Below are positions 1-64,000 of a DNA stretch of 64,000 nt, one piece after another (position 1 is the stretch's first letter; every line of letters starts with the position of its first letter). Position numbers and translations under genes: made by a program. The stretch lies in assembly GCA_043778225.1 (NCBI GenBank), contig JAYWGM010000052.1:1-64000 (forward strand), written 5' to 3'. Origin of the DNA: Deinococcales bacterium (GTDB lineage: Bacteria > Deinococcota > Deinococci > Deinococcales > JAAFIG01). A model generated the notes under the pieces. It worked only from the letters and a program-made list of their open reading frames with translations. It was not told the origin of the DNA and made no database searches.

Positions 1-66
1 TCTAAGCGACGGAAACGTTTGAAGGCGTTATTACATGATGATTACTTGCTATCGTTACTTGGTTTA

Positions 67-168
67 TCAGGCAAGGCATAGTTGGTGCGTTTGCCCTAGT
101 TTTGCTTTAGCTCTGACTTGCAGTTTACTTGGCTTTCTGATAGCCTTTTTGTGTTTCGTAGTAATCAC
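67..168 (-). CDS. Possible small basic peptide (33 aa from GTG, or 30 aa from an ACG placed behind the RBS)
   Basis: Minus strand reads AGGAGGTGATTACT-ACG-AAA-CAC..., open to TGA at 69-67: (V)ITTKHKKAIRKPSKLQVRAKAKLGQTHQLCLA. Strong SD but no ATG; not in the ORF track. Confidence 0.25.
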   Translation of the reverse strand: MITTKHKKAIRKPSKLQVRAKAKLGQTHQLCLA

Positions 169-312
169 CTCCTATCGATGGGAGGCGACCCCACGCTCTC
201 TGCTAAAGGGCGTGGGGTCAACCATTTATTGGCTGCCCAGCCCTTTTTTTCATCTTGATTGTCAAAGAACACGCTGCTCTTCGGTGACCGAACGAGCTAC
301 GGTGTCAGCATA
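168..312 (-). promoter_or_regulatory. Structured leader: -10 TATGCT, hairpin, boxA-like element, two further hairpins
   Basis: TATGCT (312-307); hairpin 276-297; TGTTCTTTGACAAT (271-258); stem GACCCCACGC/GCGTGGGGTC (187-219); stem CCTCC/GGAGG (168-185) covering the SD. Confidence 0.45.
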
Positions 313-328
313 ACATAAGGAGGATAGA

Positions 329-832
329 ATGCTAAAAACAGTCGTGGTGGCATTGGTGGCGGGTTGTCTTGGTGCGGTTATTGGAATCTCGAGTGTAGAA
401 GCCATTCCGCAAGCCATTCGTCTTGGTTATGTGACCGTGCCAGAAGTGATTAAATCTACGCCAGCCGGTGGGTCGTTAAAGAAAATCGAGGATGCTCGCA
501 ATAAAGAAGTCAAGCCGATTGCGGACAAAATTAAAGTCTTACAGCCAAAAATGCGTTCGGGCAGTGCAACTTTCGAGGAGCGCGACCAGTGGGATAAATT
601 ATCCAAGCAATACACCGCCATTGCTAAAAAGTACGATTTGCAATTTCAGAAGGTTTTGCAGCCATTTGATAAAAAACTCCTGACTTCGATTAAAAATTCT
701 GCCAATAAACAGGGGTTTAGTTTGATTGTAGATGGCATCATCGCCACCGATAGCGGATTGTTGTTGTATGCCAACCAAGACGCAGCCAACATTACCAAAG
801 ATGTGATTACCGAGTTTAAGAAATTAAAATGA
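329..832 (+). CDS. OmpH/Skp family periplasmic chaperone
   Basis: Signal peptide, 'RLGYVTVPEV' N-terminal strand, long coiled coil, 'GFSLIVD...LLYAN...NITKDVI' C-terminus; SD AGGAGG. Confidence 0.8.
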   Translation: MLKTVVVALVAGCLGAVIGISSVEAIPQAIRLGYVTVPEVIKSTPAGGSLKKIEDARNKEVKPIADKIKVLQPKMRSGSATFEERDQWDKLSKQYTAIAKKYDLQFQKVLQPFDKKLLTSIKNSANKQGFSLIVDGIIATDSGLLLYANQDAANITKDVITEFKKLK

Positions 833-1431
833 ATCTGGTTAAAGGTAAAAGTTCAAAGCCAAAAATGTTCTCGAGGGTTGCACTTGCTCGAGCGTTTTTG
901 ACGCGAGGCTTGCCATTTGTTTTTGGTCTGCTGCTTTGGTTGGCTACCTTACTTGCGCCAACCTTGGCGGCAATTCGTGGCACACCTCTTGCCCTACCGC
1001 AGCGTTTCTCGAATGTGCAAAGGCTGGCTTTAGGCTGGAATGAGATTAAGCGCCAAGAAAAAGACAACACTTGTGGTCTAGCGGTTTTATCTTTGTTGCT
1101 CGAGTGGGCTGGCGTAACCATTTCGGAAAGCAAATTGGCAACTCAAGTCAAACTCACGCCACAAGGCATCAGTTTATTTGATTGGCAAGAATTGGCTAAA
1201 AAATATGGGATACAAGGCACTTGGTTTCGAGTTGCGCCACAATCGCTTGAGGCTATGCCAATGCCGTTGGTGGCACAAATCAAAGACCCAATTGGGCATT
1301 TTGTCTTGGTGCAACGTGTTTACAACGGTTATGTACTGCTTTCAGACCCAAATGCTGGTTTGGTCTTGTATACCTTGCCTGAATTTCTGCGAGTTTGGAC
1401 TGGGCGCTCATTTGTCATGAAGGGTCTATGA
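829..1431 (+). CDS. Stand-alone C39-family cysteine peptidase with N-terminal signal/TM segment
   Basis: 'RQEKDNTCGLAVL' (Q...C), 'GHFVLV' (H), 'LSDPNAG' (D); no ABC domain; ATGA overlaps with both neighbours. Confidence 0.85.
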   Translation: MNLVKGKSSKPKMFSRVALARAFLTRGLPFVFGLLLWLATLLAPTLAAIRGTPLALPQRFSNVQRLALGWNEIKRQEKDNTCGLAVLSLLLEWAGVTISESKLATQVKLTPQGISLFDWQELAKKYGIQGTWFRVAPQSLEAMPMPLVAQIKDPIGHFVLVQRVYNGYVLLSDPNAGLVLYTLPEFLRVWTGRSFVMKGL

Positions 1432-2915
1432 CTCGAGCCATACCAAGAGATTTGAGTTTGCCTCGAGTACCAAATTGGGTTTTGGCGCTTGCCTCAAGTC
1501 TGCTGCTGAGTTTGGCATTGCGCCCGATGGGTTTGGGTGCATTGGCGCTGGTTGCGCTTGTGCCGTTGCTGCTTGGTTTGCTTGCCGAAAAGCAAATTTG
1601 GCAGGCTGGTCTGTACACCTATGCTGTGGCGATTGGCGGGGTTTGGGTCGCCATTGAAGGTTTAGCCATCGAGTACCCGTGGGTTTTTGCAATTGGTGTT
1701 TTTGGCTATGCACTGGCTTTTGCGTTTGTGGGTATGGCTGTGGTTTGGTTCAAGCGTTTTTGGGGTTCTCGAGCCATTTTATTTTTTCCGATTATCTGGG
1801 TGGCGCTTGAGTTTTTAATTAGCCAACCAGCTTTACTAGGCAGTTGGGCGAATCCAATTATGGCAATTGGGTATACCCAGTTTGAAACACCACTTTTACA
1901 AACGGCTTGTTGGAGTGGCGTGACTGGCACGAGTTTTTTGGTGTTGGCGTTCAATGCTGCTTTTGTATTTGGACTGCTCAAGTTTCGGGCATTCAAATCT
2001 TGGCTGCCTCTAATTAGCGTTTTAGGAATCTCGAGTTTAGCAGCCTATATGCCTTTGAATTCGAGTCAATCCGTTGGACAGGCATTTCGGGTTGGTATTG
2101 CCCAAGCCTATATTCCCACCCTCGAGTATACGATTGCCGATTTTGATGTGGGCGCTCAGGCTCTGATTATTGAACGGTATAAAATGCTGATGGCAAAGCT
2201 GGTTAAAAATGGCGCTCAATTGGTGGTGTTGCCCGAAACCGCTTTTGGTGGCTGGTACAGCAATCTCGAGCAGAATTCAATCTTACAAGATGCCTTGCGT
2301 GGTGTTTCTTTGGCTTTGGTGGGTGTTAAAACCGCCTATGTCACAGATACTAGGCGCGAGGGTCGCAATGCGATTCTCGAGTACCAACGCGAAGCGGGGC
2401 GCTTGCGTGAAGTTTACGCTAAGCAAATTCCGATTCCTCTAACCGAAGCGGGGTTCGCTAAAGGCACAAATCTGGGTTTAGTACGTTTGGGTGGTGTGGT
2501 TTTTGGCTTGGGTATCTGTTGGGAAAATACCTTTCCAAGTTTAGCTCGAGCTTCGGTTCTAGGTGGCGCTGAGGTGCTGGTCTATCAAAACAGTTTGCTG
2601 TGGGCTGGGGCAACTGCCACACCGATTTTGCATCAGCGTATCAGTGCTTTTCGGGCAGTCGAAAATGGGCGCATGGTGATTCATGCCACGGGTGGTGGCT
2701 CGAGTGCAATTATCGATTTTAATGGGCGTTTACTGGCTACCGCGCCACAGACCCTCGAGACCACGCTGATTGGTTTGGTACAAGCCAGAACGGGGGTTAC
2801 ACCATTTGTTCAATTTGGTGATTGGTTTGGATTGCTTTCGGTGGTTGTTAGTCTGCTGCTTGGAATATCCAAACGTTCAGTTGACCCGATTAAAGATTTA
2901 ATTTGGGGTTCGTGA
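1428..2915 (+). CDS. lnt: Apolipoprotein N-acyltransferase-like protein (nitrilase fold)
   Basis: Multi-TM N-terminus; triad motifs 'VVLPET', 'YAKQIPIP', 'GICWENTFP'; 'RAVENGR', 'TPFVQFGDW'. Start at ATG 1428 overlaps the upstream stop. Confidence 0.85.
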   Translation: MTRAIPRDLSLPRVPNWVLALASSLLLSLALRPMGLGALALVALVPLLLGLLAEKQIWQAGLYTYAVAIGGVWVAIEGLAIEYPWVFAIGVFGYALAFAFVGMAVVWFKRFWGSRAILFFPIIWVALEFLISQPALLGSWANPIMAIGYTQFETPLLQTACWSGVTGTSFLVLAFNAAFVFGLLKFRAFKSWLPLISVLGISSLAAYMPLNSSQSVGQAFRVGIAQAYIPTLEYTIADFDVGAQALIIERYKMLMAKLVKNGAQLVVLPETAFGGWYSNLEQNSILQDALRGVSLALVGVKTAYVTDTRREGRNAILEYQREAGRLREVYAKQIPIPLTEAGFAKGTNLGLVRLGGVVFGLGICWENTFPSLARASVLGGAEVLVYQNSLLWAGATATPILHQRISAFRAVENGRMVIHATGGGSSAIIDFNGRLLATAPQTLETTLIGLVQARTGVTPFVQFGDWFGLLSVVVSLLLGISKRSVDPIKDLIWGS

Positions 2916-2941
2916 GCTATTTTATTTTTGCCAATGTGTTT

Positions 2942-4066
2942 TTATGTCAGTAATTTTGTTGTCTCGAGCGCAATTGCTAATTCTTCGTTGGTTGGAATGA
3001 CCAGCACTTCGACCCTCGAGTCAGCGCTAGAAATTCGTGTGGCTCGAGATTGATTGGCAGCTTCATCCAGCTTAACCCCAAGCCAGCCAAGTTTCTCGAG
3101 AATTTTTGCCCGCATTCGGGTGTCGTTTTCGCCCACCCCGGCTGTAAAAATAATCACATCCAACCCCTCAAGTGCCGCCAAATACGCACCAATGGTTTTT
3201 TGCACGCGGTAAGCAAAAATATCCAGCGCCGTCTGCGCCACTTTTATGCCCGCATCGGCGGCTTGCCAGACATCGCGCAAGTCGGCTGCGCCAGCTAAGC
3301 CCAGCATTCCAGATTGCTTATTCAGTAAAGTATCGGTGGCATCCACACCATTTCGCCGCACAAGCTCGAGAACCAGCCCCGCGTCTATATCGCCGCTCCG
3401 TGTTCCCATCACCAGACCCTCGAGTGGTGTAAATCCCATGCTGGTGTCTATACTTTCTCCAAAGCGCACCGCACAGGCACTTGCGCCGTTGCCAAGGTGC
3501 AAAGAAATAATTTTTAGTTGCTCGAGTGGGCGCTCTAAAAATTCAGCCGCTTGGCGCACCACAAAACCGTGACTTGTGCCGTGAAAACCAAAACGGCGCA
3601 GTCCCAATTCGGGGGCAATCGCGTATGAAAAGGCTTTTTCTGGCAAACTGGCATGAAAAGCGGTGTCAAAAACCGCTACATTCTCGAGGCTTGGTAAAAT
3701 TTCTCGAGCTGCCCTAATACCGACAATATTGGGCGGATTATGAAGCGGTGCAAATTTAGCGTTCTCCTCGAGGACTTCTAGCACCGCCTCGTCAATTCGG
3801 GTTGGCGCAGTAAAAGCTAAGCCCCCATGCACCACCCGATGCCCAATGGCTTGTACCGCGCTAAAATCTTCATACTTGGCGATGGCACTAAGCGCCTGTG
3901 CATGATTCATCGCCAGCACCTTAACAATTTGTCCACCGCGCAGATAAGCGGCTTGTGGTACACCAATCCGTTCAATCACACCTCGAGCCAAAGTGCTACT
4001 CGAGGATGTTTCGATAATCGCATACTTGAGGCTCGAGCTACCTGCATTTAAGACCAGAATCTGCAT
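2942..4066 (-). CDS. ackA: Acetate kinase
   Basis: 'ILVLNAGSSSLK', 'GHRVVHGG', 'APLHNP', 'FDTAFH', 'HLGNGAS', 'IPTNEE'. Confidence 0.95.
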   Translation of the reverse strand: MQILVLNAGSSSLKYAIIETSSSSTLARGVIERIGVPQAAYLRGGQIVKVLAMNHAQALSAIAKYEDFSAVQAIGHRVVHGGLAFTAPTRIDEAVLEVLEENAKFAPLHNPPNIVGIRAAREILPSLENVAVFDTAFHASLPEKAFSYAIAPELGLRRFGFHGTSHGFVVRQAAEFLERPLEQLKIISLHLGNGASACAVRFGESIDTSMGFTPLEGLVMGTRSGDIDAGLVLELVRRNGVDATDTLLNKQSGMLGLAGAADLRDVWQAADAGIKVAQTALDIFAYRVQKTIGAYLAALEGLDVIIFTAGVGENDTRMRAKILEKLGWLGVKLDEAANQSRATRISSADSRVEVLVIPTNEELAIALETTKLLT

Positions 4067-4096
4067 AGTGGGCAGTTTATCGCGTAAACTATCCTT

Positions 4097-4552
4097 ATGC
4101 TCGAACTCGTCACAAGGCAACAAGAACTTCGTTTGCGCTTACTCGCTAAACTTTATACTGGTCTGACCGAGGATGCCCATGCGTGGTTTGACCTCGAGAA
4201 ACTCGATTTTAGCGCCGTGCCAAATATCCCCAGAGTCGAACCAGACGACGACGATGCACTCGAGTTACCCAAAGCCGACTTTCATGTCCCAGCCACAGTC
4301 AGCGAGACTCGAGCCGCCACGCTCTATTTGCTCGAGCGCGGATTTATTATCGGTTTACCGCCCGAAGTGCTAGAAGAGCAACAACTTGACCCCGCTAAAA
4401 TGATGCTGCGTCTAACTGCCAACGGTGTGGATGCTTTTGAAAATTTTGCCCTTGCCAATTTCCAACGGGCGGCTGAACGTCCAGTTGGTTTTATCGCCAG
4501 CCCTGTGGTTCGAGCCACGGGAATGCCCTTGGGGCTAAAAGGCACAGCATGA
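4097..4552 (+). CDS. Hypothetical protein (possible winged helix)
   Basis: 151 aa ORF; leaderless TAAACT-N6-ATG; 'YLLERGFI...LRLTANGVD' is wHTH-like. Confidence 0.55.
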   Translation: MLELVTRQQELRLRLLAKLYTGLTEDAHAWFDLEKLDFSAVPNIPRVEPDDDDALELPKADFHVPATVSETRAATLYLLERGFIIGLPPEVLEEQQLDPAKMMLRLTANGVDAFENFALANFQRAAERPVGFIASPVVRATGMPLGLKGTA

Positions 4553-4607
4553 ACTCGTTGCACAGAGGTACGTCAAACTCGTTGCACAGAGGTACAGCAT
4601 GAACTCG
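4544..4607. repeat. Nested direct repeats at a stop/start junction
   Basis: ACAGCATGAACTCG at 4544-4557 and 4594-4607; AACTCGTTGCACAGAGGTAC at 4552-4571 and 4576-4595. Confidence 0.9.
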
Positions 4608-5762
4608 CCACTCGAGTATTTCCAGCGCCGTTGGGTGCAACTTTCTTTTTCTCTGGCGGTTGTGGCGATTGGTTTATTGGCGATTCAGTTTATTTTCGGC
4701 TCGTTTAAGGGCGTTATCCAAGAACTCTCGAGTGTTTTTGTACTGGGTGGCTTATCGTATCTTTTTGCCTATCTTTTTCATCCACTCGTGGTTTGGTTGC
4801 AAAAAAAAGGCGTGCGGCGCGGACTTGGTTTATTGGTGGCGTTTTTAATTGTGCTGCTTTTCTTGGCGGTTTCAACAATTTTAATCGGTACAGTGGTGCA
4901 AGAACTGGCGCTCTTCGCCCAGAAACTACCAATTTTAGTGACCAACACCCAAAACCAAATCAATATCTGGCTTGATGAACTCGAGCAAGTGCGCGGACAG
5001 AATCAACAAATCCGAGATTTGATTGACCAAGTGACCACGGCGGTACAAACCGCCCTCTCGAGCATCGTTCAGAACTTATTGGGCTTTTTGCAAAATGCCA
5101 GCAGTGGTTTGGTCACCCGCACGCTTGGGGTTTTGGGCGGGGTGGTGCAATTTTTCTTGGTGCTGATTATTGGCACATATATGCTTGGTGCATTTGAAGG
5201 AATCGGCAAAACTGTCTTGGGTTTATTCCCAGTTGGTTTCCAGCCTCGAGTTCTCGAGTTTTCAAAAGATGTTTCGGTGGCGGTTGGCGGCTACATTCGT
5301 GGACAGCTTCTGATTGCTTTGGCGGTTGGTACGATGGTTGGCACAGGCTTGGCAATTTTGGGTGTGCCGTTGGCGTTGGCACTTGGTTTTATCAGTGGCA
5401 TTTTTAATATCGTGCCGTACTTGGGAGTGATTATTTCGATTGCCCCAGCCTTGTTGCTTGCCAGCCAATTTGGGTTACTGAAAGTCGTTTTGGTGATTGT
5501 CGTCTTTGTGATTGCCAACCAAGTCGAAGCGCTGGTACTCAGCCCCAACATCCTTGGGCGCAGCACCGAACTGCACCCGATTACGATTATCCTGACGATT
5601 ATTGCTGGGGCAAGTGTGCTGGGCGTGTTTGGCGGCTTGTTGGCGGTGCCGCTTGTGGCATTGGCAAAACTTTTGGTCTATAAGCACTGGATTGGTTCAA
5701 AGTGGCATGGCGGGACTCGAGAAGAAGCCGTGCCGATGCCCGAGCCTGTAGAAGAAAGCTAA
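4599..5762 (+). CDS. AI-2E (PerM-like) family transporter
   Basis: Multi-TM; 'GGYIRGQLL', 'NIVPYLG', 'NQVEALVLSPNILG...LHP'. Confidence 0.9.
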   Translation: MNSPLEYFQRRWVQLSFSLAVVAIGLLAIQFIFGSFKGVIQELSSVFVLGGLSYLFAYLFHPLVVWLQKKGVRRGLGLLVAFLIVLLFLAVSTILIGTVVQELALFAQKLPILVTNTQNQINIWLDELEQVRGQNQQIRDLIDQVTTAVQTALSSIVQNLLGFLQNASSGLVTRTLGVLGGVVQFFLVLIIGTYMLGAFEGIGKTVLGLFPVGFQPRVLEFSKDVSVAVGGYIRGQLLIALAVGTMVGTGLAILGVPLALALGFISGIFNIVPYLGVIISIAPALLLASQFGLLKVVLVIVVFVIANQVEALVLSPNILGRSTELHPITIILTIIAGASVLGVFGGLLAVPLVALAKLLVYKHWIGSKWHGGTREEAVPMPEPVEES

Positions 5763-5763
5763 T

Positions 5764-6690
5764 TTATTCGTGAATGTCTCGAGTCCTAAAACTCCAAATC
5801 ATAATGGCAGCAAAGACAAGTGCATAGACACCCGCCGCACCAACCGACCACCAGATTTTGGTCCAGTCTAGGGTTGGCAAAACGTTATTTGGGATAAATT
5901 CTCCCAGCCCAGCGTTTTGCAAAGATTCCCCAATCAGGCGTTGCCCAAGGTTCAGGTTTGGCGTAAAGAAAAAGCGTTGCCATTGCTCGAGCGTTTCTCT
6001 GAGGCGGTCGGCTTGGAAGGCAGCATTAAGTGGCGAAACGCGGTTAAGTGTAAAAAGAACACTGGCTTGAATGATTCCCTCGAGTAAATTAGGTAAAACC
6101 ACCACACCAATCACCGCAAGGGCTGGCGAAGAAAAGACCCAACTGATTAAGAATCCGAGTGCCAATGGCGCAGCCAAAACCAACCACTGCAAAATAAGCA
6201 CAGCAAATAGATTTCCCCAGTCTCCAGCAAAACCCGAGGCAAGCCCAAATGGAATGGCAATTGTTCCAAAAAGCAGCCCGCCGCCAATGCCAGCCAGAAT
6301 AATTGCACCTAGAATCAGCATTCCAGTTATAAACTTAGAAGCCAATACCCGCATTCGGTCTGGATTGGCAATTAAAATCGTTTTCCACATCTTAAAGGTG
6401 CGTTCCTCGCCAATTAAAAAAATACCAACCACAGCCGCTAATGGCAGCAGCATTAAAGGCAATACGCCACCAATGGCATTACGCACCAAACTGTACGGTG
6501 AGGCGACTTCGGAAATGGCTTTAGAAATCGCGTCGGTCGCATCCAGAATTGTTCCAGATGTCTGCCTCGAGACAAAACCAGCCACCACCAATTGAATCAC
6601 TGGAGCGATGACTCCAAATAAAATCACCAGCACCCAGAAACGTTTTTTCTTAAAAGCCTTAAACCATTCGGCACTTATCATCTCGAGCAT
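5764..6690 (-). CDS. ABC-2 type transporter permease
   Basis: 'MISAEWFK', 'GEERTFKMWKTIL', C-terminal 'FRTRDI'; coupled to the ATPase gene. Confidence 0.85.
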   Translation of the reverse strand: MLEMISAEWFKAFKKKRFWVLVILFGVIAPVIQLVVAGFVSRQTSGTILDATDAISKAISEVASPYSLVRNAIGGVLPLMLLPLAAVVGIFLIGEERTFKMWKTILIANPDRMRVLASKFITGMLILGAIILAGIGGGLLFGTIAIPFGLASGFAGDWGNLFAVLILQWLVLAAPLALGFLISWVFSSPALAVIGVVVLPNLLEGIIQASVLFTLNRVSPLNAAFQADRLRETLEQWQRFFFTPNLNLGQRLIGESLQNAGLGEFIPNNVLPTLDWTKIWWSVGAAGVYALVFAAIMIWSFRTRDIHE

Positions 6691-7634
6691 TATTTCACTC
6701 CCCCTGCATTGCCTTGGTCGCCAATCACTTCTAAGTACAGGCTCTCGAGGTCGGATTGCACACCAGAATCTAAGCGGTGCATTTGCGTAAACATCACACC
6801 GTTTTGGACCAAAAGCGGCGCGAGTCGGTAGGCTGCCGCCCGTGGCAAACGCATGGTTAGCCCACCCGAAGCCGACTCGAGGTTTTGAATCCATGGTTCG
6901 CGGCGCAGCACTTCAAGGGCTTTAACCGCATCGGTGGTCTCGAGGTGATAACTGGTGTCTATGCCGTCCACAATCGCACCCTGCAATAAGCCTTGGGTCG
7001 AACTGTCGCGCAGTAACTTACCTTTGTTGATAATCAGCACCCGAGGCGCAAATTTCTCAACTTCGGATAAAATATGGCTCGAGACAAAAACTGTAATCCC
7101 TTGGTCGCCAAAACTTTTAATCACTTCGCGCAGTTCGGCAATGCCTTCGGGGTCAAGTCCGTTGGCAGGTTCATCGAGCATCAAAAGTTTAGGACTCGAG
7201 AGCAGCGCCCGTGCTAACCCAAGACGTTGGCGCATTCCTTGGCTGTACTTGGCAACACGGTCTGCCCCTCGGGCTTTCATGCCAGTTAAGAGCAAGGTTT
7301 CTTCGATGCGTTTTTCGGGGATGTTGCCATGCAGTTTAGCTGCATAACGCAAATTATCGCGCCCAGAAAGATACGGGTAAAACGATGGCTCTTCGATCAT
7401 TGCGCCCATCTGCTTTAGAGCAATACCCGGCACTGGCTGCCCAAGCAATTTAACATCGCCGCCCGTTGGGCTGATTAAACCCGCAATCATTCGCATCGTG
7501 GTGGTTTTACCCGCCCCGTTTGGACCAAGAAACCCCACAACCTCGCCCGAGCTTAGCTTAAACGACACATCGTCTACGGCGGCTCGAGTGCCATATTTTT
7601 TAGAGAGGTGATTAACCTCGAGAACAACACTCAT
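6690..7634 (-). CDS. ABC transporter ATP-binding protein
   Basis: GPNGAGKTT, YSQGMRQR, LMLDEP, SSH. Confidence 0.95.
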   Translation of the reverse strand: MSVVLEVNHLSKKYGTRAAVDDVSFKLSSGEVVGFLGPNGAGKTTTMRMIAGLISPTGGDVKLLGQPVPGIALKQMGAMIEEPSFYPYLSGRDNLRYAAKLHGNIPEKRIEETLLLTGMKARGADRVAKYSQGMRQRLGLARALLSSPKLLMLDEPANGLDPEGIAELREVIKSFGDQGITVFVSSHILSEVEKFAPRVLIINKGKLLRDSSTQGLLQGAIVDGIDTSYHLETTDAVKALEVLRREPWIQNLESASGGLTMRLPRAAAYRLAPLLVQNGVMFTQMHRLDSGVQSDLESLYLEVIGDQGNAGGVK

Positions 7635-7728
7635 GCCTTGCATTCTAAGCGCTTTATCTGGGATTTGTCGTCGTCCCTAAGTTGCAGCTCGAGTATCCAA
7701 ACAAGCTCCCAAGTGCGTATAACAAGTT

Positions 7729-9156
7729 ATGACCCGCAATGTAACCCAAGTGGCAGCCAATCCGTGGTTATCGCCATTGTGGTTAGGGGTTGTTATCCCA
7801 CTGGCTATTTATGGCTTGCTGCGCTTATTTCCCAGTGCCGATGTACATTTGCATGGCACTGGACAACATTTTTATCTGGTCAGCATCATCAGTTTATTGT
7901 CGGCTGGAGTAGCGGTTTTTATTGGCTTTATTGGCTCGAGGTTACGCAATCTACAGGTTGTTTTGGTGTCTTTGGCGTTTATTTCTTTGGGGATTGCTTT
8001 TGGCACACATGGTTTCTCGACTCCCAATTTTGTGTTGCCCGACAACCGTGTCTCGGGGATTACCGCCGAGATGAGCGTTGTGCTGGCTGCTTTGTGGCTG
8101 CTGTCCTCGAGCTTCCCATCCGATGCGCCTTTGTTGCGCGATTTGGCAAAAGCCTCGGGTTGGTTGGTCTGGGCTTGGACGCTTTTTTTGGTGGTTTTAT
8201 GTGCTGGTTTGTTGTTGCTGCCTTGGCTGGTGGATTGGATTCCACTCGATGAAAACCCGCTACACTTGCCTTTAAGTTTGTTGACGATTGGGCTGGCGTT
8301 ATTAGCGGCTTGGCGTTATTGGCGCTCGTACCTTTTTACCCATGCACCACTGCAACTGGCGGTGGTTTACTGCGCTTTGTGGATTGCCACCACGCAATTG
8401 ATCATCAGCACCTCGAGACTCTGGGATTTATCGTGGTGGTTCTATCATGGGGTACTACTGCTGGCAGTTGGCACAATGATTTGGGGCTTATTGCGACAGT
8501 ACACTCGGGGGGCATTTGCGGCTTCTTTGTCAGGTATCTGGAATGCCAACCCGATGGCGCGGCTCGAGTCGGTGATTGACCCCGATTTACAAAACCTGAT
8601 TCGTGCCACCGAAATCCACGATTCCTATACGGCTGGTCACAACAAGCGGGTGGCATTACACGCCGTACAAATTGGGCAAGCACTGGGCTTAAAACCCGAA
8701 AAGCTCAGGGCATTGGCGCAAGGTGGTTGGGTTCATGACCTTGGCAAACTCGAGATTCCACAAGCTATTCTTAATAAACCAAGCAGCCTTACGCCAGATG
8801 AGCGCACCTTAATCGAACAGCACCCAATGATTGGCTACGATTACGCTCGAGCCACTGGTTTTTTACCCGAAGAACTGGGCATTATTCGCCATCATCACGA
8901 GCGCTACGATGGCACGGGCTACCCCGACCAACTGAGTGGCGACAACATTCCCCTGCTTGCCCGAATTACCGCCATTGCCGATGTCTACGATGCCCTGACC
9001 AGCCGTCGCAGTTACCGTGAACCAATGACCCATGCTGCGGCTCGCGCCTTTATCATGGCTCGAGCCGGAACGCACTTTGACCCCGCTTGTACCTTGGTTT
9101 GGAGTCACTTGACCAAAAACGGAGCATTGCCCGAGGTTTTGGATACGTCTTGGTGA
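7729..9156 (+). CDS. Membrane-bound HD-GYP phosphodiesterase
   Basis: About 8 TM helices, then 'HDSYTAGH', 'HDLGK', 'HHERYDGTGYP', 'ADVYDALT'. Confidence 0.9.
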   Translation: MTRNVTQVAANPWLSPLWLGVVIPLAIYGLLRLFPSADVHLHGTGQHFYLVSIISLLSAGVAVFIGFIGSRLRNLQVVLVSLAFISLGIAFGTHGFSTPNFVLPDNRVSGITAEMSVVLAALWLLSSSFPSDAPLLRDLAKASGWLVWAWTLFLVVLCAGLLLLPWLVDWIPLDENPLHLPLSLLTIGLALLAAWRYWRSYLFTHAPLQLAVVYCALWIATTQLIISTSRLWDLSWWFYHGVLLLAVGTMIWGLLRQYTRGAFAASLSGIWNANPMARLESVIDPDLQNLIRATEIHDSYTAGHNKRVALHAVQIGQALGLKPEKLRALAQGGWVHDLGKLEIPQAILNKPSSLTPDERTLIEQHPMIGYDYARATGFLPEELGIIRHHHERYDGTGYPDQLSGDNIPLLARITAIADVYDALTSRRSYREPMTHAAARAFIMARAGTHFDPACTLVWSHLTKNGALPEVLDTSW

Positions 9157-9205
9157 GAAGGCGCTGTATACCCAAAGCGATAAAATCAGCTAAACTAAAG
9201 TTGTT

Positions 9206-10387
9206 ATGCTTCGCGTGAAAAACATTAAAATTGAAAACATCAACGGCATTCGCTCGCTCGAGTTGCCGCTTCATGATGGGATAAACATTATTTGTGGTCC
9301 GAACGGAATTGGGAAAAGTACAATTGTTGAGTGCATTGTTGGTGTTCTTATTCCGATGAATCAACGTCTAACTCGAAATGTAGCAGCCAATTTTGGACAA
9401 ATATTGCTGCAAACTAAAGTAAATGGTCTTGATAGGAACGTACCCGCCCGAATTACATCCTTTGCAGGTGAAATGACTAAATACGGACAATACACTGATT
9501 TTATTAGTGAGGTTATGTATTTTCGACCAAATAGGTTGGTTTTATACCAAATTCTAAGCTCAATCCAGAAGCAAGAGAAAAAACCTTTTCAGAGTGTTGC
9601 AGGTGAATACCAAGGTAGCGGCATAGCTCTCGAGCCATCAAAAAACTGGTTAGCCCATCGGGATTTGTATTCGCATTACCCAGACGGCGACCTGACAGAA
9701 AATAACCGAATCAATCTCGAGGCTGGGAAGAACATTTTCAGTGTTTTAGACGATAAAGTTAAATTCTCGAGAATCAGTAAAAATAATGATGTGATGGTCG
9801 AAACTCCGTCGGGCATTATTCCTATGGAATACCTTTCGAGCGGGTATCAAGCCAGTGTTCTAACACTTCTGGCGATTATTCGGGAACTCGAGGCACGCTC
9901 AGATGGCGACCCTGCTAAAATAACGGACTTTGATGGCGTGGTCATTATTGACGAGATAGATGTGCATTTGCACCCAACTTGGCAAGCTCGGATTCTTGAT
10001 GGCTTACGGGCTTTACTGCCCAAAGCACAAATTATTTTAACCACCCACAGCCCGCATATTATTCAGTCGGCTCGAGCCAACGAAGTTATTCCGCTCGAGG
10101 GTGAAAATGGGCATTTGCGCCAGCGCGAAGTCCAGGTTGGTGCATCTGGTTTTCAGGGCTGGACGGTTGAAGAAATTCTGCGTGATGTGATGGGTTTAAC
10201 CAAGACTCGCCCAGCAGCCTTTACAAATTTATACGAGGCTTTTGATACTGCTGTGCAAAACGATGACCTCGAGACGGCTTCTAGGTTTTATTCTGAACTC
10301 GAGCAGATGCTCCATCCGACTTCTGACTTAAAAACTATTCTGAAGCTGCATTTGGATTCGCTGGGCGGGGTGCTTGAACCCGTATGA
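9206..10387 (+). CDS. Septu PtuA-like ABC/AAA ATPase
   Basis: GPNGIGKST, LSSGYQ, 'IDEIDVHLHPTWQ', 'TTHSPHII'; overlaps the HNH gene. Confidence 0.8.
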   Translation: MLRVKNIKIENINGIRSLELPLHDGINIICGPNGIGKSTIVECIVGVLIPMNQRLTRNVAANFGQILLQTKVNGLDRNVPARITSFAGEMTKYGQYTDFISEVMYFRPNRLVLYQILSSIQKQEKKPFQSVAGEYQGSGIALEPSKNWLAHRDLYSHYPDGDLTENNRINLEAGKNIFSVLDDKVKFSRISKNNDVMVETPSGIIPMEYLSSGYQASVLTLLAIIRELEARSDGDPAKITDFDGVVIIDEIDVHLHPTWQARILDGLRALLPKAQIILTTHSPHIIQSARANEVIPLEGENGHLRQREVQVGASGFQGWTVEEILRDVMGLTKTRPAAFTNLYEAFDTAVQNDDLETASRFYSELEQMLHPTSDLKTILKLHLDSLGGVLEPV

Positions 10388-11154
10388 TTCGTCTGACCTT
10401 GCCCGAAAAACCAGTCGAATTGACAAGCGAGTTAGAAGAAGCCCTGATTGAAGAATTTAGGAGTTCCGAAAAGGCTGTTTGGCACGCCTCATATATTCAA
10501 AAACCACTGCTCGAGATGACCGCCCACAAATGTGCTTATTGCGAACGGCAACTTGGCGAGGGTGTGAACGTCACGCTTGACCATTATGTGCATAAAAACC
10601 AAGCGCCAGAAAAAGTCGTGGCATGGGATAATTTATTGCCGTGTTGCCAAAGTTGTAACAGCAGCAAAGGCACATACAATGTTTTGACCGAACCGTTTTT
10701 TAATCCTGTGGCTGCACATATTCAAGCCCACCTCGAGATGACGGCTGGCGGGATGTTCAAAGGTATTTCGGTAGAAGGAAGGGCTGTTATTGGTCGTATG
10801 GGCTTAAATGCCAGTGACCAGAAAGTGCCACCGCGTTATCGTTTAATCCAAAAAATCACCGAGTTTTTAGAGGACTGTGATGACCTTTGTGAAAAGCTAG
10901 AGCAGCAGAATACGCCTCGAGAACGTACAAAATTACGCAATATAGTAAGGTCTTTACTTCATATGACCCGTCGTCAATCAGAATTTTCGGCAATTGCTGC
11001 CACTATTTTATTGCACGACCCTCGTCTCGAGGAAGCCAAAAATTGTCTCGAGCGGTTAAATGATTGGAATGTAGATTTAAGTCAGATGCTTGTGAACGCC
11101 CAAGAAATTGCTTTGACTTTGCGAATCAAACAAGTACAACCCCACTTTTCCTAG
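10384..11154 (+). CDS. Septu PtuB-like HNH endonuclease
   Basis: 'KCAYCE...LDHYVHK...WDNLLPCCQSCNSSKG'. Confidence 0.8.
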   Translation: MIRLTLPEKPVELTSELEEALIEEFRSSEKAVWHASYIQKPLLEMTAHKCAYCERQLGEGVNVTLDHYVHKNQAPEKVVAWDNLLPCCQSCNSSKGTYNVLTEPFFNPVAAHIQAHLEMTAGGMFKGISVEGRAVIGRMGLNASDQKVPPRYRLIQKITEFLEDCDDLCEKLEQQNTPRERTKLRNIVRSLLHMTRRQSEFSAIAATILLHDPRLEEAKNCLERLNDWNVDLSQMLVNAQEIALTLRIKQVQPHFS

Positions 11155-11181
11155 CCCAAAAGAATTGCTAAGCTATTCGGC

Positions 11182-11952: not shown

Positions 11953-11992
11953 AATGAGTTTCGCCTCATGATTGGGAGCATACCCTAATGGC

Positions 11993-45089: not shown

Positions 45090-45105
45090 GTGCTATTGTT
45101 TGATC

Positions 45106-45406
45106 ATGACCCAAATGCCACCAATCTCTCCTCGAGTCGCGCATCGTTTTACAGGCGAACAATACCGTAAAATGTATGACCTCGGTGTGTTTGGGTTTGA
45201 CCAACCCAGCGAGCTAATTGCTGGTGAGGTGTTTTTTATGGCAGCCATGGGAGCAGCAACTCGAGGTCTACCGCTTGCCAAAAGGTAATCAGTACCTGCA
45301 ACGCCAAAATTATTTAATCGGTCAAGTTATTGCGCCGCTTTTTAGCCCAGACTCGAGTTTGGCTTGGTGGACGGCATTAAGCTCACCGCCCACCGAAGGC
45401 AGTTAG
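45106..45406 (+). pseudogene. Uma2/DUF820 endonuclease remnant with internal deletion and frameshift
   Basis: N-terminal 'HRFTGEQYRKM...ELIAGEVFFMAAMG' abuts the C-terminal 'QLEVYRLP...Y' in another frame at about 45250; the core is missing. Confidence 0.75.
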
Positions 45407-47046
45407 TCCACGACCACAGGAATAATCATTGGGTTGCGCCCTGTGGCTTTGCGAACAAAACGCCGCACCATATAGTAGACATCATCGCGCACTGCCTCGA
45501 GATGCTTTTTTTCACGTGCGCCTTTCTCGAGGACTTGAATGACTTGTTCTTTAATAGTGTCGAACAGTTCTTGGTTGGCATCTATAAAACCCCGACTGGC
45601 AATTTCGGCGTGAGGATGCGGGCTAAGCACACAACCCAGCACCAACACACCATCGCCAGCCATACTTAATCTATCCTCGAGAATGCTGTCGTTGACATCG
45701 CCTACGCCTAAGCCATCAACATAGACCGCGCCGGCTGGGGCAGTACCCACGACCTTAAAATCGTCTTTAGAAACATGGATAATATCGCCGTTTTTAGCAA
45801 TAATCGTGCGTTTTGGTGGGGTTGGGCTGGCTTCGGCTAACCACTGATGGTTGATTTGTTGGCGTGGCTCGCCATGGAACGGCAAAAACCATTTGGCTTG
45901 GGCTAAGTTCAGAATCAGCTTGAGTTCTTCTTGGCTGCCATGTCCAGAAGCATGGACTTTATAATTGGGCGGATAAAAAACTTTTGCGCCTTTTTGGTAC
46001 AAGCTGTTAATCACAACGTTAATCGCTTCTTCGTTGCCGGGAATCGGGCTGCTCGAGAGAATCACGGTATCGCCGTGCTTAATGCTTAAACGTGGGTGAT
46101 TGCCAGCCGCCAGTCTCGAGAGGACGCTCATCGGTTGCCCTTGGCTGCCGGTGCAAATAAAAACCGCTTGGCTGGCTTGTAAATCGGCAAATTCATCGGT
46201 GCTGATTAAACGGTCTTTCAGGGTCATGTAGCCGAGTTCTTGGGCAATCTCGGCGTATTTGTGCATACTGCGCCCTTCCATCACGACACGGCGGTTGTAC
46301 TTTTCGGCAATAGAAATAATGTTCTGGATGCGGTGAATATGACTGGCAAAGGTGGTCACAAAAACCCGTCCAGCAGCTTTAGAAATAATTTTTTCGAGTT
46401 CAGCCGCGACATCGGCTTCCGATGGCGTTAGACCCATTTTTTCAGCACTGGTGCTGTCCGAGATTAAAAGCATTACGCCCTCTGCTCCAGCTTTAGAGAT
46501 TTTCTCGAGGTGACTGGTTTTGCCGTCGGCTGGGTTTTGGTCGAGCTTAAAGTCGCCAGTGTGAATCACATTGCCAATTGGCGTGTGGATTAAAAGCCCA
46601 GAATTATCAGGAATCGAATGGGTCATGCGAAACATATCCACGGTAAAACTCGAGGAAACCTTGATTCGCTCGTCGGTTGTAACTTCGCGCAAGTCTAAAT
46701 CGTCGGCAGAAATTCCAAACTCGGAAAATTTTTCGCGCAGCAGCCCAAGGGTCAGCTTTGCGCCGTACAGTGGCACTTTTGGTAAGCGCGGCAAAATGTA
46801 GGGCAGCGCTCCGATGTGGTCTTCGTGACCGTGGGTGATGATAAAGGCTTTGATTTCGGCGGCGTGTTCAAGCAGATAGTCTATTTTGGGGATAATTAGG
46901 TCGATGCCCGGTTGGTTGCTGTCTGGAAACGCCATACCACCATCTACGACCAAAATTTCTTGTTCGTAGCGAAAGACCATCATGTTCTTACCGATTTCCC
47001 CAAAGCCACCCAATGGGATGACCTCGAGATGTTTTTGTTGACTCAT
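45403..47046 (-). CDS. rnj: Ribonuclease J
   Basis: 'PLGGFGEIGKN', 'THGHEDHIG', 'TGSQG', 'HASGH'. Confidence 0.95.
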   Translation of the reverse strand: MSQQKHLEVIPLGGFGEIGKNMMVFRYEQEILVVDGGMAFPDSNQPGIDLIIPKIDYLLEHAAEIKAFIITHGHEDHIGALPYILPRLPKVPLYGAKLTLGLLREKFSEFGISADDLDLREVTTDERIKVSSSFTVDMFRMTHSIPDNSGLLIHTPIGNVIHTGDFKLDQNPADGKTSHLEKISKAGAEGVMLLISDSTSAEKMGLTPSEADVAAELEKIISKAAGRVFVTTFASHIHRIQNIISIAEKYNRRVVMEGRSMHKYAEIAQELGYMTLKDRLISTDEFADLQASQAVFICTGSQGQPMSVLSRLAAGNHPRLSIKHGDTVILSSSPIPGNEEAINVVINSLYQKGAKVFYPPNYKVHASGHGSQEELKLILNLAQAKWFLPFHGEPRQQINHQWLAEASPTPPKRTIIAKNGDIIHVSKDDFKVVGTAPAGAVYVDGLGVGDVNDSILEDRLSMAGDGVLVLGCVLSPHPHAEIASRGFIDANQELFDTIKEQVIQVLEKGAREKKHLEAVRDDVYYMVRRFVRKATGRNPMIIPVVVD

Positions 47047-61216: not shown

Positions 61217-62446
61217 ATGATTCAACTCGAGGATGTTTTGGCGGCTCGTGAGCGGGTGCAGGGCAGCATCAATCAGACCCCGATGCTGCGCGATGATGGG
61301 TTATCTAAAACCCTCGATACGCCCGTTTTCTTCAAAGCCGAGTGCTTACAAAAAAGCGGCAGTTTTAAGGTGCGTGGTGCATTTAATAAAATTTCTTGCC
61401 TAACCGATAAGGAGCGGTCTTGCGGCGTAATTGCGCCGTCGGCAGGCAACCACGCCCAGGGTGTCGCCATGGCAGCCGCGCTGCATGGAGTCAAAGCCAC
61501 AATTGTGATGCCGACCTTTGCGCCCTTGACCAAAATTCAAGCCACCCGCAATTATGGCGCAAGCGTGATTCTGCAAGGAACTAGTTTTGACGATGCTGCG
61601 CAATATGCCCACGAATTAGCCCTCGAACACGGCTACACTTTTGTTCATGCGTTTAATGACCCATTGATTATGGCTGGACAAGGCACATTGGGCTTAGAAA
61701 TTCTCGAGGCGCTGCCTAGCTTGGATATTTTACTTGTGCCAATTGGCGGTGGTGGCTTAATTGCTGGAATCGCCACCGCCATTAAAGCGCTACACCCCAA
61801 AACCAGAATCATTGGGGTTCAAGCCTCGGGTTGTTCGGCAGTGCTGCCAAGTCTGGCGGCGGGTTTGCCCGTGGCGGTGCTGGCTTCACAAACGATTGCT
61901 GATGGGATTGCGGTTAAGCGCCCCGGCGAACTGACCTTACCGATTATTCAAAACCTCGTGGATAGTGTGCTTGAAGTCACCGATGACGAAATTGCCAGAG
62001 CCATTGCCCATGCGGTCTCGAGTTCACGGCTGGTGGTCGAAGGGGCTGGGGCGGCTGGTCTAGCGGCGTTATTATCTGGCAAAATCGAATTCTCGAGCGG
62101 TCAGAGCATCTGTGCGCTGTTGTGTGGTGGCAACATCGACGCGAATTTACTGGCACGGGTTCTCGAGCAAGTGATGGTGCGTCAAGGGCGTTATGTGCTG
62201 TTTAAGTTGGCGGTGGTTGACCGCCCGGGGACATTGGCGCAAATTACCGACCGGGTTGCTGAGGCTGGGGCAAACATCATTGATATTTTTCATCGTCGGG
62301 CGTTGTGGCTTGCGCCGCTTGGTAAAGTTGGTGTGGAATTGGTCTTAGAAGTGCGCGACGCTCAACATGGGCAAGAAGTCCAGACTTACCTCGAGCAGCA
62401 CGGTTATCATGTGGCTCGAGAAGTTCAAGGGGATTGGCTCGAGTGA
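61217..62446 (+). CDS. ilvA: Threonine ammonia-lyase (with ACT domain)
   Basis: 'QKSGSFKVRGA', 'SAGNHAQG', 'PIGGGGL', 'DRPG'. Confidence 0.92.
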   Translation: MIQLEDVLAARERVQGSINQTPMLRDDGLSKTLDTPVFFKAECLQKSGSFKVRGAFNKISCLTDKERSCGVIAPSAGNHAQGVAMAAALHGVKATIVMPTFAPLTKIQATRNYGASVILQGTSFDDAAQYAHELALEHGYTFVHAFNDPLIMAGQGTLGLEILEALPSLDILLVPIGGGGLIAGIATAIKALHPKTRIIGVQASGCSAVLPSLAAGLPVAVLASQTIADGIAVKRPGELTLPIIQNLVDSVLEVTDDEIARAIAHAVSSSRLVVEGAGAAGLAALLSGKIEFSSGQSICALLCGGNIDANLLARVLEQVMVRQGRYVLFKLAVVDRPGTLAQITDRVAEAGANIIDIFHRRALWLAPLGKVGVELVLEVRDAQHGQEVQTYLEQHGYHVAREVQGDWLE

Positions 62447-62877
62447 AGATTTTATTTGTTTGTCATGGCAACATCTGTCGCAGTCCAATGGCGACCGGTA
62501 TTTTACGACGAATGGTTTTGGAGCGCGGTTTAGACTGGCAAATTGATTCGGCGGGTATTTCGGCACACCACACGGGTGAGGATATGCACCCCAACACCCG
62601 CCGCATTCTCGAGCGCCACAGTGCTATGTTTAAGCATCAGGCTCGGCAGATTAACGTCACAGATGCCGATTATGACCTCATTTTTGCTGCCACCAAGTAC
62701 ATTGCTCACCAATTGCGACAACGCTTTCCTCAAGCCAACATTCGCCCAATGCTCGAGCATATGGATGTGCCAGACCCATGGTATGGCACGTTTGCCGACT
62801 ATGAAGCGGTCTACGCGCTGCTCGAGCCAGCCCTGCAAGAGTTGTTGCCTGTTTGGAGTCCATTGGGAACTTTTTAG
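62443..62877 (+). CDS. Low molecular weight protein-tyrosine phosphatase
   Basis: 'FVCHGNICRS', 'VPDPWYG'. Confidence 0.92.
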   Translation: MKILFVCHGNICRSPMATGILRRMVLERGLDWQIDSAGISAHHTGEDMHPNTRRILERHSAMFKHQARQINVTDADYDLIFAATKYIAHQLRQRFPQANIRPMLEHMDVPDPWYGTFADYEAVYALLEPALQELLPVWSPLGTF

Positions 62878-62901
62878 CGCCATGGCGCGTAGAATAGAAG
62901 C

Positions 62902-63495
62902 GTGATGGACTCTTTGGTTGGGCGTTCCGAATCTTTTAGCCTCGAATTTGCTGCGCTCGAGGAGTTACGGCTTGGCGACCAAAATGCTTGGGAGGATTTA
63001 ATCCGCACCCATCAAAACCGAATGCTGAATTATCTATTTCATCTCGAGGGCAATTACGAAGATGCCTTAGATTTGTGCCAAGAAACGTTTTTTAGGGCTT
63101 GGAAAGGGATTGCCACATTTCGGGCGGGTGAGCCACTTTTGCCGTGGCTGTACACCATTGCCCGCAATGTCCAAATCGAAAAACACCGCCGCAAAACCCA
63201 CGGGCAGTTTTCGCTCGAACAAGCCTTTGAAGAAACTGGCTTTGAACCAACCGCCAACACCGCTTCGGCGGTCAAAAATGCCGAAGTCTCGCAGAATGCC
63301 GAACGGGTTCGGGCAGCCTTGCTCGATTTACCCGAGGAATACCGCAGCGCAGTGTTGTTGCGTTTTATGCAAGACCAAACGTATGAAGAAATTGCCCAAG
63401 TCCAAAATTGTGCCATTGGCACAGCCAAAAGTCGGGTTTTTCGTGGCAAAGAAATGCTCGAGAAAGCCCTGACTGGGCGGGTGATGCTCGAATGA
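62902..63495 (+). CDS. ECF RNA polymerase sigma factor
   Basis: 'DLCQETF', 'WLYTIARN', 'YEEIA...GTAKSRVFRG'. Confidence 0.92.
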   Translation: MMDSLVGRSESFSLEFAALEELRLGDQNAWEDLIRTHQNRMLNYLFHLEGNYEDALDLCQETFFRAWKGIATFRAGEPLLPWLYTIARNVQIEKHRRKTHGQFSLEQAFEETGFEPTANTASAVKNAEVSQNAERVRAALLDLPEEYRSAVLLRFMQDQTYEEIAQVQNCAIGTAKSRVFRGKEMLEKALTGRVMLE

Positions 63496-64000
63496 CCCTA
63501 CCTGAACTCTTGCACAACTTACCAACGGTCAATGCCCCAGCCCCTTTTGCCTCAGAGCTTGCGGCACAGGTTGCTTTGGCAGCGCAACTCGAGCAGCTAT
63601 CCAATGCCCATCCGCCACCCAATTTTGCTGCCCAGACCGCCCGACGGATTGCCTCCGATGCGCTTCCGATGCTTTGGCTCGAAACCGTACAAGCCCCAGC
63701 CGATTTTGCGGCGCTTATGGCAGCCCAAATTGCCACCGAAGCCAACCCCTTGCGCTTCCTCGAGCCACAAACTGTACCACCTAAATTTGCGGCAGGCTTA
63801 GCAGCACAAATTGCCAATCCGTTAGTCAGTGCGCCCCAAGTGGCTGCGCCGCTTCACTTTGCAACTCGAGTCTCGAGAAAAATTGCTGAGGATGCTGCAC
63901 TCAATAGCGAACACGACCGTACTCCATTGTATTTTTTAGGGACACTCTTGGCAGGTGTGGCGCTGGCTTTTGGCGCTTTGACTTGGACGGACACCCAAGC
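63492..64000 (+). CDS. Putative anti-sigma factor, partial (runs off the window)
   Basis: ATGA overlap with sigma; MTLPELLHNL... with five 'PxxFAxxxxxxI/VA' repeats, then a hydrophobic segment; translated by hand. Confidence 0.7.
   Translation, partial: MTLPELLHNLPTVNAPAPFASELAAQVALAAQLEQLSNAHPPPNFAAQTARRIASDALPMLWLETVQAPADFAALMAAQIATEANPLRFLEPQTVPPKFAAGLAAQIANPLVSAPQVAAPLHFATRVSRKIAEDAALNSEHDRTPLYFLGTLLAGVALAFGALTWTDTQ

Follow-up and report, generated by a model that had tools for sequence, protein, structure and literature searches.

Extreme abundance and retention of the palindrome CTCGAG in a Deinococcota lineage, and the processes that may maintain it

The stretch of DNA analysed here, called the window, comprises 64,000 bases of contig C52 of G000, the genome of an uncultured Deinococcales bacterium (4,029,277 bases in 107 contigs, 48.7% GC, 89% complete), and the element in question is the hexamer CTCGAG. 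This word is almost certainly a highly iterated palindrome (HIP), which a continuing word-specific force installs and keeps almost wherever the genome can bear it. The 64-kb window contains 417 copies, on average one every 153 bases or so, which lie in intergenic DNA as well as in genes on either strand, while 100 dinucleotide-preserving shuffles gave 7.30 ± 2.90 copies with a maximum of 16 (0/100 reached 417). Genome-wide, the word occupies about 75% of conserved Leu-Glu positions, the other two reading frames and the spacers. A first-pass annotation, made from the sequence of the window alone, had likened CTCGAG to the cyanobacterial HIP1 (GCGATCGC), and the likeness holds, as the word is hyper-abundant, frame-independent, retained, lineage-wide and set amid avoided palindromes. 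The public data that hold DNA of G000 are assembled contigs from two samples of one study.

Abundance, exactness and spacing of CTCGAG

Throughout G000, CTCGAG occurs 24,877 times, or once per 162 bases (about 6.2 per kb). It is the most frequent hexamer of the genome, the words ranked 2 to 11 all overlap it, and the commonest unrelated hexamer, TTTTTG, reaches a both-strand count of 10,650 compared with 49,754 for CTCGAG. The observed/expected ratio (O/E) under Markov models of orders 0 to 4 was 26.7, 47.5, 15.1, 3.6 and 1.16, respectively. The drop at orders 3 and 4 arises because the sub-words themselves come from CTCGAG; for instance, 24,877 of the 36,442 copies of TCGA lie inside it.

Genes were taken from our own crude calls, in which open reading frames (ORFs) received scores from a codon model and which gave 3,446 genes (87.6% coding). 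According to these calls, 13,057 sites lie in frame 0, which reads Leu-Glu and holds 60% of the genic sites, 4,358 in frame 1 and 4,452 in frame 2, while 3,010 fall outside genes, giving 6.21 sites per kb in coding and 5.92 per kb in non-coding DNA. Shuffling synonymous codons within each gene, which preserves its protein and codon usage, reduced the 21,908 sites of the coding sequences to 2,357, so that the observed number is 9.3 times the shuffled one. By frame, 13,081, 4,368 and 4,459 sites were observed against 1,660, 388 and 310 after the shuffle, which amounts to 11-fold and 14-fold excesses in frames 1 and 2. This shuffle is conservative because CTCGAG itself inflates the codon usage of the genes, and shuffling of whole codons left 1,001 sites. 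Both features are those of a HIP-type word, namely a palindrome many-fold over composition and codon expectation and its presence in all reading frames as well as in intergenic DNA.

The first-pass annotation had described CTCGAG as recurring throughout the window, in three frames and between genes, and had argued that one codon pair could not explain it, all of which is borne out by these counts; its hand counts for ackA and the Septu pair (listed below) were exact. Under the Markov and codon-shuffled models that it proposed as controls, the enrichment neither disappeared with codon or dicodon usage nor proved to be confined to a single frame.

The word is also visible in the proteome. Leu-Glu dipeptides in G000 number 18,901, compared with 8,167 expected from amino-acid frequencies, and Glu-Leu dipeptides 7,888. 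CTCGAG spells 69% of Leu-Glu; elsewhere, Leu is encoded by CTC in 9.2% of cases and Glu by GAG in 22.5%. Among 313 frame-0 sites of G000 that are missing from its congener G003, 181 correspond to Leu-Glu in other codons and 132 to another dipeptide, most often Leu-Asp (20), Phe-Glu (15), Leu-Gly (10), Leu-Lys (10) and Ile-Glu (9). From these 132 replacements it follows that CTCGAG costs amino-acid changes.

Moreover, the word is exact. Its flanks are nearly unbiased (the strongest base preference is 30%), and all nine one-mismatch classes stand at 0.24-1.01 of the codon-aware expectation, five of them at 0.24-0.62, compared with 9.3-fold for the exact word. The C-to-T neighbour words are at 0.95 and 0.62 of expectation. 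With unbiased flanks and no enriched one-mismatch class, CTCGAG does not have the graded extended consensus of uptake sequences. Such sharpness would match that of type II restriction-modification enzymes.

Copies are spread evenly at large scale, with a mean of 31 sites per 5 kb, a variance of 45.7 and a minimum of 3, and the poorest 5-kb stretches are low-GC islands. At least one copy is found in 99% of the genes of 900 bases or more, and density climbs with gene GC. Mobile genes hold the word almost at native density; 20 methyltransferase genes carry 4.5 per kb, and the Septu pair of the window is a mobile-type defence system with CTCGAG at native density (7.2 per kb). As well, two CTCGAG-poor islands (C44:55-65 kb and C41:54-59 kb) have 32-41% GC, consistent with imported DNA, and a single open frame of 5,179 codons (C93:9-15548, 45% GC) is also poor in the word, with 37 sites in 15.5 kb.

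At short range, the copies exclude each other. The pair correlation g(d) is 0.35 below 15 bases, 0.66 at 15-24 bases and 0.86-0.94 up to about 69 bases, and then stays flat at about 1.03-1.08. Where two Leu-Glu dipeptides lie 3-5 codons apart, both are spelled CTCGAG at 0.50-0.73 of the independent expectation, and each uses the word at a frequency of 0.38-0.56, compared with about 0.70-0.74 far apart; this comparison keeps the protein constant, and the exclusion therefore acts at the level of the DNA. The spacing periodicity that had been suggested as a check was not seen in G000, where no period except 3 was found at distances up to 1.5 kb. A spacing of 6 has zero cases, because it would create GAGCTC, an almost absent word, and a spacing of 7 gives a small spike (123 cases in G000, with any middle base). 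These CTCGAG-N-CTCGAG doublets often cap hairpins with a GC stem and a T run, which resemble terminators (e.g., C20:38438, C27:9960 and C15:117524).

The features of the window to which the text refers are as follows.

1..64000, no strand: CTCGAG copies, 417 sites against 7.3 ± 2.9 in shuffles
2942..4123, minus strand: ackA (acetate kinase), 13 CTCGAG; Pfam Acetate_kinase, 2.3e-127
9206..11154, plus strand: Septu defence pair PtuA/PtuB, 14 CTCGAG, 7.2 per kb; PADLOC
9206-10387, plus strand: PtuA; PADLOC, 1.3e-125
10384-11154, plus strand: PtuB; PADLOC, 3.1e-65
45403..47046, minus strand: RNase J gene, used to judge kinship and to retrieve related loci; NCBIfam RNase J
53849-55087, plus strand: second defence-type gene, an AAA ATPase matching HEC-01A (5.4e-185); PADLOC

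CTCGAG contains no stop codon in any frame of either strand, so that a high density of it may make spurious ORFs longer and lead gene callers astray in the clade. In the window, long shadow ORFs lie over real genes at 16697-17575 (minus strand), within 15906-18023 (plus strand), and at 47430-48209 (minus strand), against 47572-48729 (plus strand).

Spread and retention among relatives

The closest named records of the RNase J encoded in the window come from metagenome-assembled genomes (MAGs) of Deinococcales or Deinococcota, in agreement with the Deinococcota lineage assumed in the first-pass annotation. Relatives were sampled twice, first as 30 genomes that include 18 further members of the family of G000 (five genera), and then as 301 genomes of the phylum, with one unpublished genome left out. 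All 19 family genomes are rich in CTCGAG; the 18 others hold 12,028-35,442 sites each (4.3-6.8 per kb) and 0-568 copies of the reversed word GAGCTC. Several genera of families f2 and f5 carry 1-3.5 per kb. In the neighbouring family f3, genomes G253 (24,536 sites in 3.5 Mb) and G196 (13,562 sites in 3.8 Mb) are rich, and their RNase J identities to G000 of 62% and 66%, respectively, place them well outside its family. The largest genus, g7 (100 sampled genomes), is depleted, with 26-1,010 sites per genome. In G197, 683 sites in a genome of 2.3 Mb are about the chance number, and 40 kb of sampled DNA contained 6 sites (O/E 0.7), with Leu-Glu at a normal level. The trait is thus lineage-wide with occasional losses, as is found for HIP-type words: it is present in 19/19 family genomes, G253 and G196, and G197 is near chance.

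The frame-independent excess was recovered in samples of the relatives. In G003 (47.6% GC), frames 0, 1 and 2 held 1,135, 361 and 409 sites compared with 123, 39 and 25 in shuffles; in G013 (59.5% GC), 776, 244 and 310 compared with 235, 14 and 30, with 1,665 Leu-Glu against 786; in G253 (50.9% GC), 245, 48 and 75 compared with 37, 3.4 and 4.8, with 297 Leu-Glu against 125; and in G196 (66.5% GC), 337, 10 and 34 compared with 88, 1.4 and 7.8. G019, of family f2, shows a weak version, in which frame 0 is 1.2 times the shuffle and frames 1 and 2 are 5-6 times.

An alignment of G000 with G003 (261,130 columns, 78.2% identity) contains 1,044 common sites out of 1,677 and 1,417, respectively. The retention of 62-74%, compared with about 30% for hexamers generally, ranks first of 3,021 hexamers; by frame it is 66%, 52% and 65%, and in spacers it is 65% (n = 137) compared with 28%. 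Retention above other words, inside and between ORFs, is a further HIP-type feature. At non-shared sites, the other genome is at Hamming distance 1 in 23% of cases, compared with 50% for control hexamers.

Sites also coincide between more distant genomes, with 157 coincidences against 1.7 by chance between G000 and G013 (69.7% identity), 24/46 against 0.25 for G253 and 28/57 against 0.23 for G196. Where G000 and G003 both encode Leu-Glu, CTCGAG is used at 75% and 68% of positions, respectively, and across comparisons 75-86% of conserved Leu-Glu positions are spelled CTCGAG in G000. Divided by the product of the separate frequencies, joint use at Leu-Glu is 1.13 for G003 (odds ratio 4.7), 1.10 for G013, 1.00 for G196 and 0.99 for G253. 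Since beyond the genus joint use equals that product, the coincidence of sites is not claimed as inheritance and may be re-creation; one force acting independently on conserved Leu-Glu suffices for the distant coincidences, and dating of the trait from shared positions was dropped. A census of four congeners covered 78 positions, with 20 present in all four, 20 single presences and 15 single absences, a small sample which suggests that gain and loss of CTCGAG are near balance.

Gene order within the genus is shuffled almost gene by gene at 78% DNA identity, as judged from G003 against G000 and from window positions 1-17000 and 33000-48000 against G003, G006 and G007. A 400-kb part of G003 falls into 100 blocks collinear with G000, of median length 1.9 kb (about one gene), and adjoining blocks map to different G000 contigs with junction gaps of 0-340 bases, to be read with caution as both genomes are MAGs. 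CTCGAG was rejected as a rearrangement joint: 17/58 junction intervals hold it, compared with 39 ± 5% of random intervals of the same length, and 15/43 collinear gaps do; in this sense, the recombination idea of the first-pass annotation fails. Two short spacer stretches of the window, at 34115-34146 (GC-rich) and about 37560-37608, match dozens of sites at 96-100% identity in the same three congeners and look like small dispersed repeat elements.

Methyltransferases and the possible origin of the word

Many palindromic hexamers are avoided in G000. Thirty-four of the 64 have an O/E below 0.1, compared with 86 of 4,032 non-palindromes, in line with the earlier remark that restriction sites are normally avoided. 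AGGCCT, GACGTC and GGGCCC occur once each in 4 Mb, GGCGCC three times and GGCC 131 times. The avoided non-palindromes presumably fit degenerate restriction specificities (GGCC, GRCGYC, RCATGY, GDGCHC and GGNNCC). The avoided palindrome set correlates at r = 0.86 with that of a congener and at r = 0.43 with that of another genus, and the four sampled genomes (G000, G003, G013 and G019) all nearly lack GAGCTC, GGATCC and GGCGCC. In G197 there is almost no palindrome avoidance, with 3/64 below 0.1.

G000 possesses at least 20 DNA-methyltransferase genes, including five C5, three type I HsdM, two type ISP, MmeI/Eco57I-like type IIG, three N4/N6 and three D12 enzymes, as well as one of 650 aa with a TaqI-like specificity domain. 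They are located on contigs C33, C38, C99, C2, C55, C65, C95, C92, C93, C9, C64, C79, C101, C41, C15, C1, C66 and C89, and the complement differs even among congeners. One of the C5 methylases carries a fused MerR helix-turn-helix. At least one type II-like methyltransferase was present in each CTCGAG-rich genome checked; G253, for instance, gives 5, 2, 7, 4 and 2 hits to PF00145, PF01555, PF02384, PF07669 and PF02086, respectively. G197 has none, with zero hits to the first four families and only a marginal 41-residue hit to PF02086. Thus the link to methylation drawn in the first-pass annotation receives indirect support from G197, which lacks both CTCGAG and recognisable DNA methyltransferases.

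The methylation-directed repair proposed there was not supported by the searches made. Vsr (PF03852) was found in 0/19 family genomes by a search that was positive in E. coli, B. subtilis and Caulobacter controls, and Vsr-type repair was rejected on this result; the XhoI-family nuclease (PF04555) was likewise found in 0/19, and no methyltransferase was found family-wide. A methyltransferase of the XhoI-system type, which the first-pass annotation had suggested looking for, was not found in G000. A resident XhoI-type system was rejected, given the missing nuclease, a site enriched 27-fold, and a partner methyltransferase in outgroup G021 that has no real homologue in G000. The 650-aa methyltransferase was rejected as the cognate enzyme because it has no counterpart among the G013 hits.

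As the mechanism, we tentatively favour, at somewhat short of an even chance, a methylation-linked mark of own DNA whose methyltransferases are replaced between genomes. A dimeric, restriction-modification-type enzyme would recognise the exact word; the likeliest candidate is a solitary methyltransferase, with different genomes having different ones through non-orthologous replacement. Selection would keep the dense mark if it helps the cell to treat DNA as its own or that of its kin during exchange, repair or restriction, and the setting would be a restriction-modification arsenal that appears unusually large and fluid in this lineage.

A number of observations weigh against a methylation-linked mark. 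We infer all three of its elements, namely a methyltransferase that reads CTCGAG, methylation of the word and use of the mark, and the weakest link is that no CTCGAG methyltransferase was identified in any genome. No methyltransferase orthologue common to the family was found in PF00145, PF01555, PF02384, PF07669 and PF02086, and a single conserved cognate enzyme was rejected on the results for these five families. The methyltransferases of G010 and of the single-contig genome G013 share no more than 33% identity with any G000 methyltransferase; as G010 gave no C5 methyltransferase and G013 no PF01555 hit, replacement would need to cross classes. The methyltransferase beside the XhoI-family nuclease in G021 matches G000 over 65-74 residues only. 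Hits to the D12 class fall into unrelated groups, one of which (about 280 aa, in genera g3 and g5 and in G019) is vertically inherited. This group could not be found in any of the four g1 genomes under comparison, gave no hits in G253, G196, G300 and G197 and one of 29% in G207, and was rejected as the cognate enzyme because its presence does not track CTCGAG outside the family. The correlation in G197 comes from a single loss in a small genome of 2.3 Mb and could reflect a change of lifestyle rather than a cause. Finally, g7 has methyltransferases in 3/3 genomes checked, yet CTCGAG is depleted there, so that methyltransferases alone do not make the word.

A possible but doubtful alternative is that CTCGAG forms the visible half of a self-marking system that has not been described before and is coupled to the restriction-modification load. 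Its reader would then lie outside the recognisable methyltransferase, Vsr, XhoI and AddAB families, and the chromosome would be saturated with one 'safe' palindrome while dozens of others are purged. A lineage that abandons its restriction-modification arsenal, as G197 would have done, would lose the mark, and the gene-by-gene shuffling of order may belong to the same biology of intense DNA exchange.

It seems rather unlikely that CTCGAG is an uptake or recombination signal independent of methylation, spread by molecular drive because a competence or recombination protein prefers DNA carrying it, as proposed for the uptake words of Pasteurellaceae and Neisseriaceae. Such a signal would account for the presence of the word in all frames and in spacers, the distorted proteome and the even spread, in which the word is scarce only in low-GC islands. 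Mobile accessory genes near native density look like genes circulating within a pool that is rich in the word, the low g(d) of 0.35 below 15 bp resembles diminishing returns from a nearby second copy, and the shuffling of gene order within the genus fits rampant DNA exchange. However, an exact 6-mer palindrome that has no flank preference and no enriched one-mismatch variants is unlike known uptake sequences, genus g7 is depleted in it, and DNA uptake in Thermus and Deinococcus is described as lacking a sequence preference. G197 has lost the word but retains ComEC, a secretin and MutL; the loss is therefore not tied to a loss of competence or mismatch repair, which was rejected as the reason why G197 lacks CTCGAG; for models built on these functions, the case of G197 is uninformative. 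In favour of uptake, HIP1 has now been proposed as an uptake signal (PMC13756078).

An abundant dimeric protein that binds CTCGAG, with dense and even sites organising or compacting the chromosome, appears improbable. A palindrome suits a dimer, the spread is even, and exclusion to about 60 bp is what a footprint would give; Xu et al. 2018 (PMC5861425) favour a role in nucleoid structure for HIP1. However, there is no candidate protein, and no period except 3 was found up to 1.5 kb, while the scale for HIP1 is 10-90 kb. Nucleoid proteins usually tolerate mismatches, yet no one-mismatch word is enriched, and the link between CTCGAG and the restriction-modification load is left unexplained.

Equally low is the chance of biased repair or mutational drive, in which a repair enzyme other than Vsr converts near-cognate words or mismatches to CTCGAG and the word needs no function. 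An independent deterministic process would indeed give the near-product joint use of Leu-Glu in distant genomes, one-step intermediates look short-lived at 23% against 50%, and five of the nine one-mismatch classes are low. This depletion of neighbours is, however, confounded by an expectation inflated by CTCGAG codons and by avoided words such as CTAG. Besides the lack of Vsr in the family, the word is maintained against all types of change rather than just C-to-T, which is hard for a glycosylase or patch repair, and close copies interfere at constant protein, which context-free conversion would not produce. Xu et al. 2018 (PMC5861425) take the conservation of HIP1 as a sign of selection.

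A by-product of codon usage, a relic of the CTC and GAG codons of a high-GC ancestor or an assembly artefact has practically no chance: although frame 0 dominates the genic sites, high-GC relatives carry 1-3.5 per kb and frame 0 in G019 is close to its shuffle, such origins are ruled out by the excess over a shuffle that preserves protein and codon usage, in frames 1 and 2 above all, by 5.9 sites per kb in spacers, by the occurrence of the word at 47.6% to 66.5% GC and in 18 further family genomes, and by CTC and GAG being minority codons away from it. What mechanism probability remains is assigned to none of the readings named.

Comparison with known systems

Several known systems share single features with CTCGAG. 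The uptake signal sequences (USS) of Pasteurellaceae and the DNA uptake sequences (DUS) of Neisseriaceae are oriented words of 9-12 bases at about one per kb, with a graded extended consensus. They resemble CTCGAG in being over-represented across related genera and in all frames, in their effects on proteins, in their even spread and in being rare in imported DNA, whereas CTCGAG is a palindromic hexamer, exact and present at 6 per kb. Very-short-patch repair in E. coli, acting with Dcm, mildly favours CCWGG over its deamination products, and here too a word of the restriction-modification type has its frequency shaped by a word-specific process. It differs in that no Vsr was found in the 19 family genomes, that the enrichment is 27-fold, and that the C-to-T neighbours (0.95 and 0.62) are reported as not depleted. 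Chi, read by RecBCD or AddAB, is likewise an over-represented short word that marks own DNA, but it is oriented and strand-skewed while CTCGAG is a palindrome. The nuclease domain PDDEXK_1 (PF12705, AddAB/RecB-type) gave no hit in G000, G005, G007, G009, G010 and G014 and is patchy elsewhere, in a search of limited sensitivity with this one Pfam family, and an origin from Chi/AddAB was rejected on that basis. XhoI and PaeR7I-type systems recognise the same six bases; the sites of a resident enzyme, however, are avoided, while CTCGAG is enriched 27-fold here.

CTCGAG itself has been reported as a 5-methylcytosine motif in Halorubrum (PMC8112702) and as a methylated motif common to hosts and phages in hot-spring communities (bioRxiv 10.64898/2026.06.24.734251). 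No report of its abundance in Deinococcota was found among the papers listed in literature searches, judged by title or abstract, that did not cover subscription journals, and neither Elhai 2015 (PMC4390886) nor PMC13756078 mentions 'Deinococc'.

The closest counterparts are HIP1 and the alternate cyanobacterial HIPs (Elhai 2015, PMC4390886; Xu, Lawrence and Durand 2018, PMC5861425). CTCGAG differs from HIP1 in belonging to another phylum, in being another word, a hexamer instead of an octamer and without extension, and in its density of 6.2 per kb (4.3-6.8 in the family) compared with 0.3-2.7 per kb. DmtA and DmtC are conserved for HIP1, whereas no conserved cognate methyltransferase was found for CTCGAG. 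According to Elhai 2015 (PMC4390886), each alternate HIP is accompanied by a methyltransferase for that word, and the CGATCG methyltransferases are mostly DmtC orthologues and sometimes unrelated m4C (N4-methylcytosine) enzymes. HIP1 was also reported to raise transformation in a way that depends on methylation (PMC13756078) and to be distributed periodically at 10-90 kb (Xu et al. 2018, PMC5861425).

For thirty years HIP1 has gone unexplained, in part because a single phylum was the only one known to have it. Another iterated palindrome, denser and from a different phylum, would provide an independent test system for the ideas advanced for HIP1, such as methyl-directed repair, an uptake signal and nucleoid structure. 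This system offers a different word, a GC range of 47.6-66.5%, graded neighbours and one relative, G197, that has neither the word nor methyltransferases and forms a natural contrast to the CTCGAG-rich G253. It also illustrates that a DNA-level force can rewrite proteins, as Leu-Glu is more than doubled; the density of CTCGAG flags imported DNA and confounds analyses of codon usage, of nonsynonymous to synonymous substitution ratios (dN/dS) and of motifs in the clade. In what they share, HIP1 and CTCGAG are both short palindromes containing GC whose numbers exceed expectation tens of times; they occur in every frame and in intergenic DNA, are retained above background and lie amid avoided restriction-type words. 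Both are lineage-wide with exceptional losses, HIP1 being lost in obligate symbionts and CTCGAG being absent as an enriched word from the small genome G197.

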